In this document: piece after piece, positions 2,538 to 28,690 of the stretch | Numbering within the stretch: position 1 is the first letter of the stretch | How the letters are laid out: each line of letters opens with the position of its first letter | IMG/VR virus record: IMGVR_UViG_2648501299_000008 | DNA from: a virus | Lineage: Duplodnaviria; Heunggongvirae; Uroviricota; Caudoviricetes | Direction: 5' to 3' (one strand) | Length of the DNA: 43,241 nt | Translations under genes and position numbers: made by a program | Notes under the pieces: generated by a model | Told to the model about the DNA's origin: nothing | Database searches by the model: none | The model's input: only the letters and a program-made list of their open reading frames with translations

Positions 2538-3514
2538 GCATACTCCATAATAATAATGACACCGGGCGCGCCGTTACCACCAGCTTTCCCAGCACCACTA
2601 GAGCCAGAAAACGCGCCGCTACCGCCAGACCCGTAACCTGCACCATTGTTGCCTACCACGGACAGACTCCCTCCTGAACCGACATGGTTACCGCCAGAAC
2701 CCAGAGGATTACCACCTCCTCTACCTGAAAGCCCAGTCCCGATAGCTAAACCCTGGCCGCCCGCTTCACCATCAATGGAAACTATATTTGCGCCAGTGCA
2801 CGGCGCTGTTTTTGTCTGAATTGACTGGCATACGCTTGGAACTGTAAATGAGTTAGACGCCAGACCACTGCTGCCGCCAGGGCAGGTCATTATTGTGCCA
2901 AAAATAGTGTCTCCACCTGCACCACCGATATTGGCACCAGTACTGGATGCTGAACCTGTCCCACCATTCCCACCAGCACCAATAGTTACTGATATCGGCC
3001 CTGTAATCGTGAACTTAGTCTCACCATACGATCCAGAGTTTCCACCCGCAGCTGACGACACCTGCCCAGATGGTGGTGTCGAACTCCCACCACCACCTGC
3101 ACCACCACCGACTCCACGTCCAATGCCAAATTTTGCCCCAGGTGTTGGGGTATACATTCCCGATGAGGTGATAACTTTCACGCCCACTAAACGTCCAACC
3201 GTTGACGACCCAAGCCCTCCTACTAATTGAAGGTTTGTGAGAGCCGTAGAAATCGCCGCTGCACCATCTGATTTGATATCGGCAAATGGGTTTGCACGGC
3301 TCAGTGTGAGTTTTTGAATGGCTTTTAAAACCTGAGTCATATCGTTAATGTCGAGCGCCAATCCTGCTGACTCTACGATATGCGCTAACTCTTCCTGCAT
3401 GGCATTAAACGCTGCTGCCCGCAGCCTCGTTGCGGCAATACCACCAGCAACACTTCCATCAGTATATTTGCCATCCTGCGTTGCAGTGGCTTCGACTTGC
3501 CCGATTCGGAGCAT
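2534..3514 (-). CDS. tail fibre protein, glycine-rich
   Basis: 326 aa; conserved-looking N-terminal attachment region followed by long Gly/Ser/Thr-rich repeats. GAGGA Shine-Dalgarno before the ATG at 3514. Sits distal to the baseplate genes. Confidence 0.7.
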   Translation of the reverse strand: MLRIGQVEATATQDGKYTDGSVAGGIAATRLRAAAFNAMQEELAHIVESAGLALDINDMTQVLKAIQKLTLSRANPFADIKSDGAAAISTALTNLQLVGGLGSSTVGRLVGVKVITSSGMYTPTPGAKFGIGRGVGGGAGGGGSSTPPSGQVSSAAGGNSGSYGETKFTITGPISVTIGAGGNGGTGSASSTGANIGGAGGDTIFGTIMTCPGGSSGLASNSFTVPSVCQSIQTKTAPCTGANIVSIDGEAGGQGLAIGTGLSGRGGGNPLGSGGNHVGSGGSLSVVGNNGAGYGSGGSGAFSGSSGAGKAGGNGAPGVIIIMEYA

Positions 3515-16999: not shown

Positions 17000-17866
17000 T
17001 CAGGCTCCTGTTTTTTCAAGTAAGTTTTTGAACGCAGCGTCAGGAGGACACACCTCATCAGCCAGTCCAATTTCAACGCCATCAGCAGCCATAAAACAGG
17101 CGGCCTGGGTACTTTTTATAACCTTTGCGCTAATCCCCCGGTTTCTGGCAACAGTGTTCACAAACAATTCGCCCATGGTGTTAATGTCCTGCTGGATGGC
17201 GGCCAGAGCTTCATCTGACAACTCTCTCAGCGGCGAACCTTCAGCCTTGCGGGATCCATAGGTGATGATCGTAACTTTAAGACCGTCATCTTTAATCCGC
17301 TGCGTCCAGTCAAGGTGCATGGTGATCACACCCACAGAACCCACTCCGCCGGTGCGCGGAACAGAAATCCGGTCCGCTGCACTGGCAATGGCATACGCAG
17401 CGGAATAAGCGCTTTCCGTCAGAATGGCATGGATAGGCTTTTTCCCCCGGGAGCCGTAAATGACATCAACCAGATCGAAGCATCCAGCGACCTCGCCGCC
17501 GGGTGAGTCGATATCCAGGCAAATGCCCGAAATGTCGGGATCTTCCATCGCAGTAAGAAACGCCTGACGAATGCCGTCATACCCTGTCATTCCACTGTAC
17601 GGACGCAGACTGCCCAGTTTTTGCACCAGCGTTCCGCATATCGGGATGACGGCGACACCCAGCACATTGTCATAACCCGGATCACTACGGGATTCACGTC
17701 CCCGGTTATCGTCATATCCGTACCAGTCATCCTCCATGGCAAGAGAAGATTCGATTTTACTGATACCAAATCGGTCCATTACGGATGCCATGATGACTTC
17801 GGCTTTACTCGGGTGCAGCGCCAGCGGGGTGTTAAATAATCGCTGGGCCAGATGGGGTAGATTCAC
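17000..17866 (-). CDS. head maturation protease, S49/ClpP-fold (lambda gpC-like)
   Basis: 288 aa, GTG start at 17864-17866 with GGAGG upstream, overlapping the portal stop. Position after the portal gene. Confidence 0.75.
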   Translation of the reverse strand: MNLPHLAQRLFNTPLALHPSKAEVIMASVMDRFGISKIESSLAMEDDWYGYDDNRGRESRSDPGYDNVLGVAVIPICGTLVQKLGSLRPYSGMTGYDGIRQAFLTAMEDPDISGICLDIDSPGGEVAGCFDLVDVIYGSRGKKPIHAILTESAYSAAYAIASAADRISVPRTGGVGSVGVITMHLDWTQRIKDDGLKVTIITYGSRKAEGSPLRELSDEALAAIQQDINTMGELFVNTVARNRGISAKVIKSTQAACFMAADGVEIGLADEVCPPDAAFKNLLEKTGA

Positions 17867-25154: not shown

Positions 25155-25772
25155 TCATACCAGTGCGGCTTTTGCTTTGGCGTAGCGTGCACGACGGTCG
25201 TTAATGCCGTTCTGTCCACCATTGATGATCTGGGTGATGCGAACCAGATCGCCGGAATAGCTCAGGCATCCGCTGGTGGCGTAGAACCATGCAGCTGAAC
25301 GTGCCGCGTTGATATCCTTTTCCAGCAACTCAGGATTACTGACTAAATCCAGTTTTAATCCCGTTCCGCAGCGGCGGTAATTATCAAGACCGGTAATCTG
25401 AATCAGCCCACGGCCACGATATTTCCACCCATCGCCTGATGCTTTGTTACCGAGGCGATTGCTGTACACCAGATTTGCAATGGCTGGCTGATTGGCTACG
25501 TGCCCTTTTTCTTTGTCACGCCCAAGCATATATGCCTGATAGTTCGTAATGCGGCGTCCAAATGTGGTCAGCAGAGCGGCTGGGGTGTAGTTGAAGCTCT
25601 CCACCAGCGCAGAGAATCCCGCTGATTCATGTCCTGACTGAGCAATAAACATTGCCTGGTCTTCAGGCTTAACAATGCCGAACTCTTTCATTGCCGCGTC
25701 AATGTGCGGAAACCAGCGCGTAGCTAACCCGGCGCTTACACCAGCCGCCTGTTGAAATTGTGATTGGTTCAT
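25155..25772 (-). CDS. endolysin, glycoside hydrolase family 19 (chitinase-like lysozyme)
   Basis: 205 aa; lysozyme/chitinase-like sequence in the lysis cassette position. Start overlaps the preceding membrane protein stop (TAATG). Confidence 0.8.
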   Translation of the reverse strand: MNQSQFQQAAGVSAGLATRWFPHIDAAMKEFGIVKPEDQAMFIAQSGHESAGFSALVESFNYTPAALLTTFGRRITNYQAYMLGRDKEKGHVANQPAIANLVYSNRLGNKASGDGWKYRGRGLIQITGLDNYRRCGTGLKLDLVSNPELLEKDINAARSAAWFYATSGCLSYSGDLVRITQIINGGQNGINDRRARYAKAKAALV

Positions 25773-26053
25773 TAATGCCTCAGCGTATCAACGAGACGCG
25801 CCACATTCCCACGAGCCCATAACACGGCAGCGCAAATAAGAAGGTTTACGATGACCACCATCCAGTGTGACTCCTGGTAGAGGCCGAACAGATATCGGAA
25901 TGGAACGCTGGCATAAACCAGCACAACGAAGTACGCCAGCAATGATATAGCGGGGCGATGTCTTGCCCCTTCACGCTGGTAGAACATCAGGACAAGGACG
26001 ATGACCGCACAAATACCTGCATTCACCATCGCTGACGGATCACTTGTTACCAT
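25772..26053 (-). CDS. holin-like small membrane protein
   Basis: 93 aa from the ATG at 26051-26053 with GGAGGAGGGG just upstream; two or three predicted transmembrane segments. Confidence 0.5.
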   Translation of the reverse strand: MVTSDPSAMVNAGICAVIVLVLMFYQREGARHRPAISLLAYFVVLVYASVPFRYLFGLYQESHWMVVIVNLLICAAVLWARGNVARLVDTLRH

Positions 26054-26435
26054 TGCTGGCCCCTCCTCCACGGAATCGCGAAAGAATACTGAACAGGCTT
26101 CCCAAATCCTGACTGTTGAAAAATGTGAGCACTTTGATTGTCATCGCCGCCACTACAACAGCACCAAGTGCGTCTAATGGTCTGTCACTATACCCGGTAG
26201 CCTGTGACAGCTTTGAACCCACCAGTCCAGCGGCAAGAACGCCAACAATGAATGACGTCATGAAGTAAGCAATCAATCGTACTCGTGTGATATTTGCCGC
26301 TGTCGCTACATAAAATACTGCACCAGCGAATGCGCCAAATACCACGCCATAATCAATACCGGTTGCAAGACCAAATACGCTGGCTCCCATCAGGCCACCA
26401 GCCGCGACCGTAGTGCCAGAAACAGGATCGGACAT
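26040..26435 (-). CDS. holin-like membrane protein
   Basis: 131 aa with several Gly/Ala-rich hydrophobic segments; first gene of the lysis cassette. Confidence 0.5.
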   Translation of the reverse strand: MSDPVSGTTVAAGGLMGASVFGLATGIDYGVVFGAFAGAVFYVATAANITRVRLIAYFMTSFIVGVLAAGLVGSKLSQATGYSDRPLDALGAVVVAAMTIKVLTFFNSQDLGSLFSILSRFRGGGASNGNK

Positions 26436-26529
26436 TAAGCCCCCTCTTATTGCTGTGAGTCCTCTCAGGAATGAGGGGAATAAAAAAGGCCACCCGAAGG
26501 TGGCCTTATGTGATTCGAGGATATATCGT

Positions 26530-27429
26530 TTAGCGAATATTCCACATCATCGTGCTGCCATTATGATTTTCAATAATTTTCGCAGCAGGACTCGTACCAA
26601 ATGAATGCATGTAGCAATGATGTATAGTCAGCACAAGATCCTGCAGAGTTTGGTCGCTCTCCAGCTCCATAATGTTCAAACCAATGCTTTGCGCTTTATC
26701 CAGATGAATATGTCTAGCATGCGCATAGGTTGTATGATGATTGTTTAGCTCATCACAAATTCGCTTAGCCTTATCTTGAGCGTTAGCATGACCTGCAAAC
26801 ATACCAGTACACAGCCATTTTTGTACTATTTCATTAGCCCAAACAATAGCCTTTTCACATTCACCAATGAGAGTCGGGTTTAGCTTTTGAAGAGTAAATT
26901 GCCACCATTGGATCGCTGCAGCATTTTCAGAAATCTCTTTCTTAGCTCGCTCATACTCTTCTATGATCGCATGAGATGATAAACCACCAAGCTGCGGATC
27001 AATTGGCCCCAAATTTGACTGTTTGCCCAATACAATCTGTTCGGCACAGCAAGCCAACATGGTCCCACAACTCATTGAGATCATAGGAACAATTGCCCGG
27101 ATATTGGTCCCAAATTTTGAACGAAGATAATGACCAATAGATTCCAATGCTGCAATATCTCCCCCTGGGGTATGAAGCAAGATATCCAGCCCTAATGACG
27201 TGTCTAAGCCGTTAATGGCTGACATAAGACCATTTTTATCGTCATCTGACATTTGTATTAAATGCTGCAACCCAGGCCCCCCCTTCTGGAGGAAGCCTGA
27301 GTAATATGAAATTACGTTTCGGCCTGTATGCTTCGACAACTCTCGTAAGTACTTGTGGCGAACCTCATCCGCTGGTGTACGTTGAGCAATAGTACCCATC
27401 TCGCCCAACACGTCTATCCAATTTGGCAT
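26530..27429 (-). CDS. ClpP-fold serine protease (SDH/S49-like family), accessory gene
   Basis: 299 aa with LLHTPGGDIAALE and MISMSCGTMLACCAEQ segments resembling the ClpP/S49 fold. Region looks AT-rich by eye. Lies between the Q region and the holin. Confidence 0.55.
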   Translation of the reverse strand: MPNWIDVLGEMGTIAQRTPADEVRHKYLRELSKHTGRNVISYYSGFLQKGGPGLQHLIQMSDDDKNGLMSAINGLDTSLGLDILLHTPGGDIAALESIGHYLRSKFGTNIRAIVPMISMSCGTMLACCAEQIVLGKQSNLGPIDPQLGGLSSHAIIEEYERAKKEISENAAAIQWWQFTLQKLNPTLIGECEKAIVWANEIVQKWLCTGMFAGHANAQDKAKRICDELNNHHTTYAHARHIHLDKAQSIGLNIMELESDQTLQDLVLTIHHCYMHSFGTSPAAKIIENHNGSTMMWNIR

Positions 27430-27441
27430 GTTCTTCTTTTA

Positions 27442-27642
27442 TCAATATGAGTACAGTTGATGAGATTGTTGCTCTACAGCTTCAACTGAACTTACAGTGC
27501 TGTAGGAGTATAGAACACCACTACGTATAGCCTGGTCGTCTTGCTGAGCAAGAACGCGCATAGCATAGTGTTGTACAGATTCACCTTTATGGAGTTCCTC
27601 TGATTTAATACCTACTTTTTCGTAAAATTCTGCAGCGCCCAT
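27442..27642 (-). CDS. small protein of unknown function, upstream partner of the protease
   Basis: 66 aa with GAGGG Shine-Dalgarno; stop lies 12 nt before the protease start. Confidence 0.45.
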   Translation of the reverse strand: MGAAEFYEKVGIKSEELHKGESVQHYAMRVLAQQDDQAIRSGVLYSYSTVSSVEAVEQQSHQLYSY

Positions 27643-27726
27643 GATTTTGTCCCTCGTTATAGCTACATCTAGCTCAAAAACAAAACAACAAACACAAGAT
27701 GTAGTGATTTACGGTCTTTAAATACA

Positions 27727-27752
27727 CGAAAAGCCTCAAAACGAGGCTTTAA
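27727..27752 (-). terminator. short leader hairpin/terminator downstream of the candidate late promoter (tR'-like)
   Basis: AAGCCTC-N5-GAGGCTT stem at 27731-27749, followed on the minus-strand transcript by UUUCGUGUAUU; about 45 nt downstream of the predicted start. Confidence 0.4.
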
Positions 27753-27781
27753 AAGAGTCTTTTTGATAAAGAACTAAACAG

Positions 27782-27811
27782 ACTATAGCGAGTCAATTAC
27801 AGATTTGACAA
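27782..27811 (-). promoter_or_regulatory. sigma70-like promoter on the minus strand (candidate Q-dependent late promoter PR')
   Basis: Minus-strand TTGTCA (27806-27811), 18-nt spacer, TATAGT (27782-27787). Confidence 0.35.
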
Positions 27812-27909
27812 GTAAAAAAGGGATTAAAAGCTCATAAAAACGGCTTTTTTGGATTATTCATCATCTTTTTTGATGCACGTAACAATCCAAATATAAAAAC
27901 AAAGTTTCG

Positions 27910-27936
27910 ACAAAAAACCCGCTCGATGGCGGGTTC
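27910..27936 (-). terminator. strong rho-independent terminator just downstream of the Q-like gene
   Basis: Minus-strand AACCCGC-catcga-GCGGGTT followed by UUUUUUG. Confidence 0.6.
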
Positions 27937-28000
27937 TTAATTCTTTGTCGACCTACGAAGCTATGGCGACGATATCAGATTTACATGAAATATATGCGTT

Positions 28001-28690
28001 TCAATCCAGTTTTGCAAGACTTGAGTCTAAATTTGTCGCCTTTTGTTGTGAACGTGATCGCGTAACCTGCAATAAAGCCCCGCTATCCAGTCGCAGGAAG
28101 ATGCTGCGCATCTCAACCCAGCGGTCAGTAAAGGTCTCTGACCAGTTTTTTGGCGTTACGCCAACCAGCGACGCCAGCGCCTGATATTCGTACATCTCAC
28201 GCCCTGCCAGCTCTGCTTTCACGTCCTGAGCCGCGAGCCAGACAAGCTTCTTCAGGCGCTCCATCGTTTTGCCGGCCACCTTCTTCGCGCCGAGCTGCTC
28301 CCGGAACTCTGCCCACGCCCATTGAGTGATTTCCACCTGATAGCACCAGCGCACGTTCTCGCTATAGTTCCATAGCAGCCACGCTTTCTGGTGTTCTTCG
28401 AGTGACATCAGTGCGCGGCGCCACGATGCGCTGGAGTATTCAACCGGCTGCACCAGGGGAATATGCGAACCCTTGGCATGCGACTGCTTGCCCGGTATTG
28501 GCGGGTTATCCAGCGTAATCATTTCCCCGGTCACTTCATCCAGCACTCGAGGCTTTTTACGTTTAAACGTTCCCGTATCGAACTGCGCGTTTTCAAGCCA
28601 CGCCATCAACTGCCCTTTCGTCGCACCACTTAAATCGGCGGTGGCCACCATCAACTGCTGGCGCACGTATTCGAGAAATTGAGTATTCAT
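28001..28690 (-). CDS. late-gene antiterminator Q-like protein
   Basis: 229 aa immediately downstream of ylcG and rusA and upstream of the terminators, promoter and lysis genes. Assignment by synteny and size more than sequence. Confidence 0.5.
   Translation of the reverse strand: MNTQFLEYVRQQLMVATADLSGATKGQLMAWLENAQFDTGTFKRKKPRVLDEVTGEMITLDNPPIPGKQSHAKGSHIPLVQPVEYSSASWRRALMSLEEHQKAWLLWNYSENVRWCYQVEITQWAWAEFREQLGAKKVAGKTMERLKKLVWLAAQDVKAELAGREMYEYQALASLVGVTPKNWSETFTDRWVEMRSIFLRLDSGALLQVTRSRSQQKATNLDSSLAKLD

Follow-up and report, generated by a model that had tools for sequence, protein, structure and literature searches.

A mobile two-gene cassette encoding a ClpP-fold serine protease and a small partner protein in the late-promoter-to-holin slot of an Escherichia coli prophage

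Cargo genes ("morons") of lambdoid phages are found in the slot between the late promoter with its terminator (pR'-tR') and the holin gene; it is here, downstream of the late leader, that Stx phages carry stx. Other prophage genes act in abortive infection, and Lit of prophage e14 provides the precedent for a prophage protease as the effector. Small phage proteins that act on proteases are also known: CIII of lambda inhibits the FtsH protease as a competing substrate. The NfeD protease, for its part, cuts its operon partner, stomatin. The locus described here invites comparison with each of these systems. It lies in IMG/VR record IMGVR_UViG_2648501299_000008, a stretch of 43,241 nucleotides (the window, by which the whole of the analysed DNA is meant) that represents an E. 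coli prophage with identical copies in seven complete genomes. Its cassette encodes a 299-amino-acid ClpP-fold serine protease and, just upstream, a 66-amino-acid partner protein; both open reading frames (ORFs) are intact and unchanged in all seven genomes.

A mobile cassette in a variable slot

In the lambdoid late-promoter-to-holin slot, the segment from 26466 to 27856 forms an autonomous cargo of two genes that is horizontally mobile, and there is very little doubt that it is accessory to the phage and that it brings with it an active-looking protease. Both ORFs are found on the minus strand at the limits first proposed for them (Table 1) and, as the original prediction also had it, between Q and the lysis genes: the Q antiterminator (PF06323) bounds the cassette upstream, and two holins and a GH19 endolysin bound it downstream. 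In an E. coli prophage with a 99.1%-identical Q, homology to the window stops at 27912 and the holin gene follows directly after Q. In another, with the same holins, homology reaches 26507 and a different gene precedes the holins, while in other E. coli prophages the breakpoints on the left side fall at 26480-26507. The possibility, raised at the outset, that the pair is a conserved core component of this phage family is contradicted by its absence beside a nearly identical Q. Its recurrence at the same position in other prophages, which had been suggested as a check, is seen in E. coli Nissle 1917: a different prophage there carries a copy with 80% identity, flanked by Q and by other cargo. 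The cassette is rare. Most of it occurs in only 28 of 5,426 E. coli genomes, many of them Nissle derivatives, and a relative is encoded in only 7 of 50,697 phage records. Its base composition is deviant, in keeping with the AT-rich island first noticed: the GC fraction is 0.35-0.45 over 26400-28000, compared to 0.52-0.57 towards Q and about 0.50-0.52 towards the holins. The cassette thus resembles lambdoid morons in its place downstream of Q and the late leader RNA, its absence from close relatives, its composition, and its possession of a predicted promoter and terminator of its own. Unlike morons such as stx, however, its genes are unrelated to any characterised conversion gene.

The antiterminator-holin slot is variable in its contents (L192 4226-5507 and L191 3006-4282, both minus strand). 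One E. coli prophage has an unrelated gene for a 198-amino-acid hypothetical protein, together with one for a DUF1133 protein, before the same holins, and another has nothing between a 99%-identical Q and its holin. The homology breakpoints in the slot coincide with terminator hairpins at 26486-26507 and 27916-27935.

The original prediction viewed the insertion site as a cargo hotspot of lambdoid phages. The cargo part of that claim stands, but the cassette is not restricted to lambdoid phages, occurring also at integrase sites, in Mu-like phages, in an actinophage and in islands. Counted over 58 distinct viral loci, the next two genes 3' of the protease include integrases (12 loci), holins or lysins (about 16-20) and DNA methylases (5). 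Since integrases and holins or lysins are the most frequent, the cassette occupies the two classical moron sites. In Mu-like phages of Aeromonas and Shewanella, it separates Mor or C from the lysis genes; it comes right after HicAB in Porphyromonas phages and, in Pseudomonas, between a tRNA attachment site and the integrase. At prophage ends it is found next to integrases, with transcription directed away from the phage, and across phyla it is also found in chromosomal islands whose surroundings contain no phage genes. The 136 immediate neighbours in 78 loci of many phyla represent 140 different Pfam families, and no third gene recurs among them. Among them are a YafQ-like toxin accompanied by Fic proteins, GmrSD together with a methylase and an integrase, and subunits of type I restriction-modification systems. 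Such a distribution is that expected of a self-sufficient, horizontally moving module. In one Aeromonas Mu-like prophage (L007 3784-4578, minus strand), a TIR_2-domain gene, possibly a defence gene, is located two genes upstream of the cassette.

The protease and its partner

The 299-amino-acid protein is a member of Pfam family PF01972 (SDH_protease), which it matches over residues 22-253 with 76.6 bits against a gathering threshold of 31.3. It also matches phrog_11747, a phrog without known function. With 91.3 bits it misses the 250-bit equivalog cut-off of NCBIfam NF047768 (Clp_like_SDH, "SDH family Clp fold serine proteinase"), which places it, by sequence, in a divergent branch of the SDH family. 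The family is large, with 3,335 clusters (at 50% identity) at E <= 1e-3 and 326 at E <= 1e-30, and about 50% identity to the protease is kept in Nitrospinae, Planctomycetes, Verrucomicrobia, Firmicutes, Actinobacteria, Bacteroidales, Saccharibacteria and a methanogen. In common with PF01972 and NF047768 (formerly DUF114), the protease has a ClpP fold, a conserved Ser and Asp, and several His; its subfamily is set apart by an MPNW N-terminus, which is conserved, and by a helical C-terminal domain rich in His. The Pfam search gave no match to PF01343 (peptidase S49) and none at E <= 0.1 to PF00574 (CLP_protease). Of the original description of a ClpP/S49-like protease, the ClpP fold is thus retained, but the assignment to S49 or to ClpP proper is not.

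The AlphaFold2 model, made with 26 homologues, has a ClpP fold with a predicted local distance difference test (pLDDT) score of 89.6 and a predicted template modelling score of 0.86. In a profile alignment, Ser120 shares its column with the catalytic Ser residues of ClpP and NfeD 1510-N, and the S97A mutant chain of 1510-N shows Ala there; the protein thus combines a ClpP/crotonase fold with a nucleophilic Ser placed as in ClpP. The two segments pointed out earlier, HTPGG and SMSCG, are indeed present, within LLHTPGGDIAA (residues 84-94) and ISMSCGTML (residues 117-125), and lie on invariant columns of the family alignment. Invariant in 26 sequences of 47-100% identity are His86, Ser120, Lys136, Asp144, His237, His240, His270, His271 and His275. 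For PF01972, the Pfam description gives a Ser-Asp-His triad, for which the invariant Ser120, Asp144 and five His of the protease are candidates. Because its candidate catalytic residues are invariant, the protease looks active, with Ser120 as the predicted nucleophile, and the active site, whose loss was considered as a possible objection, looks intact.

How does the protease compare with better-known enzymes? A sequence search of the Protein Data Bank with the protease alone found no solved structure close in sequence, and a profile search of solved structures gave only weak matches to ClpP and NfeD. When an approximate E. coli ClpP sequence was compared by hhalign, only the TPGG region aligned. 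Compared to ClpP (MEROPS S14), the protease has an extra domain of about 150 residues and no known ATPase partner, and Asp144, in GPIDPQ, stands (judged by eye only) at the place of the catalytic His in the MIHQP of ClpP. In contrast to NfeD/1510-N, SppA and gpC of lambda (S49), it has no membrane segments and no PF01343 match, and whereas NfeD/1510-N has stomatin as its operon partner, the partner here is an unrelated soluble protein of about 60 residues. The phage's own S49 head protease is encoded by a separate ORF at 17000-17866, adjoining a lambda-type portal gene, and has no significant sequence similarity to the 299-amino-acid protein. The latter is therefore a second, accessory protease, as had been supposed.

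The Nissle 1917 protease (WP_223938292.1; L002 6064-6933, minus strand) has a RefSeq length of 289 residues, which omits the near-invariant MPNW N-terminus. Since tblastn aligns it from residue 1, the RefSeq start is probably 10 codons late.

The 66-amino-acid protein is a dedicated, co-evolving companion of the protease, as the original prediction of a small partner protein implied. A small upstream ORF was found at 103 of 117 distinct protease loci (88%), but at only 24 of the 117 when the anchor was shifted by 1 kb as a control; the count took ORFs of at least 40 codons on the same strand, ending -30 to +80 nucleotides from the protease start. Many of these ORFs overlap the start of the protease gene. 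The loci extend from enterics to Planctomycetes, an actinophage and a methanogen, and the pair as such is spread on mobile elements over nearly all bacterial phyla. In the window, the partner gene lies 12 nucleotides upstream of the protease gene and in the same frame, with nothing more than TGA TAA AAG AAG AAC between them, which makes translational coupling plausible. The Shine-Dalgarno sequence ascribed to the small gene is also there, as GAGGGA, 8 nucleotides 5' of its start.

Pfam and NCBIfam searches gave no match to the partner, which does match phrog_25714; its database homologues are all labelled "hypothetical" and none has a Pfam domain. Compared to the protease, which keeps about 50% identity across nearly all bacterial phyla, the partner evolves fast. 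Nevertheless, jackhmmer ties 51 distinct partners to the 66-amino-acid protein, and together with profile searches it joins those of enterics, Pseudomonas, Nitrospinae, Planctomycetes, Verrucomicrobia, Bdellovibrio, Deinococcales and a methanogen, with the consensus I..xF..L.I....P.Y.NP..FA..FKKCS[IV]L....[IV].Y[SA].[ST][ST]. The N-terminal part, predicted to be helical in the window's protein, is loosely conserved; it is followed there by GVLYSYST, which contains Tyr45, and by a polar tail ending in LYSY. Tyr45 is invariant across 53 aligned partners. In most phyla only 3-10 variable residues follow the motif, while enteric partners have an extra variable polar linker and then an invariant C-terminal [LM]Y[ST]Y. 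An AlphaFold2 model of the partner alone (pLDDT 60.6) was too poor for a fold search. The partner is probably disordered on its own, and the low-confidence model is consistent with a protein that folds on its target. That it physically engages the protease is rather likely.

Several database entries deserve comment. Two proteins, P0229 and P0202, look like the protease fused in frame to a partner-like N-terminus (…MFEEMGLG…PTLSNHT… and …MFKEIDIQ…FSGSSSN…, respectively). In Gordonia phage BeeGee (MW601219; L189 3325-3501, plus strand), an unannotated 58-residue partner ORF ending in VRYSTSATR overlaps the start of the gp31 protease. The annotated 90-residue coding sequence of p14 in Shewanella phage MuM16-1 (L188 3152-3424, plus strand), upstream of the protease gene, starts inside the leader hairpin (3161-3211), and the true start is probably further downstream. 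Finally, P0273 is a homologue of the partner with 73% identity to its E. coli version; deposited as Bacillus amyloliquefaciens, it probably reflects contamination or a mislabelled assembly.

Regulatory elements

The cassette also carries its own predicted regulatory elements. In an alignment of 24 distinct cassettes, a promoter, a GC hairpin with a U-run, a 12-bp hairpin and a terminator after the protease gene travel with the two genes. The sigma-70-like promoter lies within the segment in common with Nissle, and its -10 element, gcTATAGT, is conserved in many cassettes. The hairpin that follows, present in the minimum-free-energy structure of the leader, keeps its pairing while its stem changes (AAGCCUC/GAGGCUU, GACCUCC/GGAGGUU and AACCCCGC/GCGGGGUU). 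The terminator after the protease gene forms the left homology boundary of the cassette.

The 12-bp hairpin, which ends 8 nucleotides before the Shine-Dalgarno sequence, is a candidate for a new cis-regulatory RNA motif on the evidence of the alignment. In the stem, 85% of cells are paired, compared to 14-54% in slid controls, and one pair is seen as AU, GC, CG, GU and UG. Double-change cells number 17, against 8.9 ± 2.6 in shuffles, none of 500 of which reached the observed value. A covariance model finds one match per γ-proteobacterial cassette, directly upstream of the partner gene and including those of the Aeromonas and Shewanella Mu-like phages, and no others in 2.1 Mb. RNAalifold recovers 8 of the 12 stem pairs from the long leader alignment. 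An Rfam search gave nothing above threshold for the leader hairpin, the sub-threshold match being mir-1954 at 27 bits against 99. A processing site, an mRNA stabiliser and a translational operator are candidate roles. That the inverted repeat might act as a DNA operator or promoter was considered and rejected, given the base-pair covariation, the frequent G·U pairs, and a covariance score 15-25 bits higher on the coding strand than on the reverse strand. Hairpin copies were found one each in L007, L013-L017, L026-L072 and L188, with invariant A/U positions in addition.

The original prediction placed the genes just downstream of a promoter and a leader hairpin. Both are there, but the late pair of the phage itself is another, more upstream one, at 28017-27913. 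Directly after the Q stop codon lies an isrJ-like RNA, which ends at a terminator hairpin (27935-27916) and is preceded by a promoter-like TTGCAA-17-TATATT (28017-27989); judged by this arrangement, it looks like the short late (pR'/6S-type) leader transcript of the phage. If so, the Salmonella IsrJ "sRNA" (small RNA) family may consist of Q-dependent late leader RNAs of lambdoid prophages. The promoter and hairpin of the cassette (27811-27730) were considered as pR' and tR'. This was rejected: the isrJ-like RNA already accounts for the late leader, and the two elements also accompany the cassette in a Mu-like phage.

Table 1. Features of the cassette and of its surroundings, with positions in the window
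Feature	Positions	Strand	Description
Partner ORF	27442-27642	minus	66 amino acids; stop codon within coordinates; ATG start
Protease ORF	26530-27429	minus	299 amino acids
Mobile cassette extent	26466-27856	minus	Promoter to terminator; 80% nucleotide identity with E. coli Nissle 1917 prophage
Insert relative to phages with same Q or same holins	about 26508-27911	minus	From homology breakpoints
Predicted sigma-70-like cassette promoter	27782-27811	minus	TTGTCA-18-TATAGT; consensus scan, 10/12 matches
Leader hairpin and U-run, terminator-like	27730-27750	minus	About 25 nucleotides downstream of predicted transcription start
Conserved leader RNA hairpin	27658-27708	minus	12-bp stem 27704-27693 / 27674-27663; 18-nucleotide variable loop
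Strong intrinsic terminator	26486-26507	minus	9-bp stem with 6 GC pairs, then TTTTTATT; after protease, before holin
Q antiterminator (context)	28001-28690	minus	Pfam PF06323, E 1e-101
isrJ-like RNA (context)	27913-27985	minus	Rfam RF01393, 58.7 bits against gathering 37; directly after Q stop codon
Lysis genes (context)	25155-26435	minus	Holin 26040-26435, holin 25772-26071, GH19 endolysin 25155-25772; Pfam and RefSeq annotation

Possible functions of the pair

What might such a pair do? The tentative proposal made here is that the cassette is a toxin-antitoxin-like, abortive-infection or defence module in which the partner serves as a pseudo-substrate inhibitor. The cassette encodes a cytoplasmic ClpP-fold protease of the SDH family together with its cognate partner, translated just upstream. 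The partner would bind the protease via its conserved [hydrophobic]-x-Tyr-Ser-x-[Ser/Gly]-[Ser/Thr] segment and, as a pseudo-substrate or a pro-peptide acting in trans, would keep it occupied or inhibited. Should the supply or integrity of the partner fail, for example upon host shut-off by an infecting phage, the free protease might degrade essential host or phage proteins, and the pair would thus act as a toxin-antitoxin-like, abortive-infection or exclusion module to the benefit of the lysogen. In the lysogen, transcription from the cassette promoter would presumably be low, attenuated by the leader terminator and modulated by the conserved leader hairpin; after induction, there would be strong read-through from the Q-modified late promoter.

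Several likenesses argue for this proposal. As in type II toxin-antitoxin and abortive-infection systems (HicAB; Lit of prophage e14), a small, fast-evolving upstream gene is combined with a larger, conserved enzyme, often with overlap, and the cassette is scattered on mobile elements next to toxin-antitoxin and restriction genes. The two-gene operon, the small upstream partner and the mobile, patchy distribution are all as in type II toxin-antitoxin systems. In contrast to these systems, the partner has no recognisable DNA-binding domain. The concept of the partner is like that of lambda CIII, also a small protein that inhibits by competing as a substrate. However, there is no sequence relationship between the two, and the target of CIII is a host protease, whereas that of the partner would be encoded with it. 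Among the possibilities raised originally, an anti-defence role fits the context less well than a self-contained defence or toxin-antitoxin-like module does.

Other observations weigh against the proposal. Neither the protease nor the partner matched any PADLOC-DB 2.0 model at E <= 1, and a literature search found no paper describing the pair or a function for PF01972. The link to defence genes is anecdotal and at best suggestive, and type I restriction-modification subunits make up only 4 of the 136 immediate neighbours. In lambdoid and Mu-like phages, the cassette is in the late transcription path before the lysis genes, a place that would suit a function in lytic growth equally well, and the leader terminator suggests that there may be little expression in the lysogen. 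The P0229 and P0202 fusions could be gene-calling artefacts (run-throughs). The 12-bp hairpin, moreover, is not in the minimum-free-energy fold of the window's leader, where an alternative pairing is preferred.

The same late position is the starting point for a rival explanation, on which the pair would serve the phage itself: shortly before lysis, Q-dependent read-through would yield the protease in bulk, and it would secure the lytic cycle by degrading host proteins such as defence proteins, stress proteases, or regulators of the envelope or of lysis, with the partner as adaptor, activator or timer. This would explain why the cassette is located directly between the late promoter and terminator and the holin gene both here and in Nissle, between Mor or C and the lysis genes in the Aeromonas and Shewanella phages, and within two genes upstream of holins or lysins in roughly 16-20 of the 58 viral loci, and why a leader terminator that limits expression unless antiterminated should be present. 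But the pair is also found next to integrases at prophage ends, where it is transcribed away from the phage, and in islands that have no phage genes nearby; it has a predicted promoter and terminator of its own, and it is very rare in sequenced phages. A late function that serves the phage is unlikely. More improbable still is that the protease is a processing enzyme that cuts the partner at the Tyr-Ser segment and frees a bioactive signal, toxin or regulatory peptide. The strict pairing, the motif near the C-terminus of the partner, and the variable linker and invariant C-terminal tetrapeptide of the enteric partners would fit, and NfeD/1510-N, a structural match, is a precedent for a ClpP-fold protease encoded with its specific substrate. 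However, the partner has no signal peptide and no gene for export or for a modification enzyme was found among the neighbours, while the few variable residues that follow the motif in most phyla leave little room for a conserved product, and the N-terminal part is only loosely conserved.

Two further explanations are not easily reconciled with the comparisons above. ClpP-fold proteases are common head-maturation enzymes, and the 299-amino-acid protein has a weak match to the phrog_53 head maturation protease (E 0.008), so that a second head-maturation or scaffold-processing enzyme might be considered. But the phage already has its S49 head protease beside the portal gene, the cassette lies outside the structural genes and is missing from the prophage with the 99%-identical Q, and it occurs in unrelated phage types and at loci that are not phage. 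A morphogenetic role is effectively refuted by this distribution. The idea that the ORFs are an inert remnant, decaying cargo that has no current function, is hardly more credible: few E. coli genomes have the cassette, and it has no known function, but both ORFs are intact and identical in the seven genomes, all invariant family residues are kept, and the motif of the partner and the regulatory elements are conserved over deep divergence.

A broader form of the toxin-antitoxin-like proposal is doubtful, namely that SDH proteases with disordered Tyr-Ser-motif partners constitute a new pan-bacterial, occasionally archaeal, family of protease-based toxin-antitoxin or abortive-infection systems on prophages and genomic islands, in which the partner would be a self-consumed pseudo-substrate inhibitor and which, in γ-proteobacteria, would be controlled by an undescribed leader RNA consisting of a terminator and a sequence-specific 12-bp hairpin. 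The cassette, only 1.4 kb in size, is readily testable, and it is carried by a probiotic strain, E. coli Nissle 1917. The small-protein family is currently unannotated and is sometimes missed in gene calling. If the pair is indeed defensive or toxin-antitoxin-like, a self-compartmentalised serine protease would join the known repertoire of effectors, and there would be a first functional handle on PF01972, a family of about 3,300 clusters at 50% identity that is without a close solved structure or a described role.

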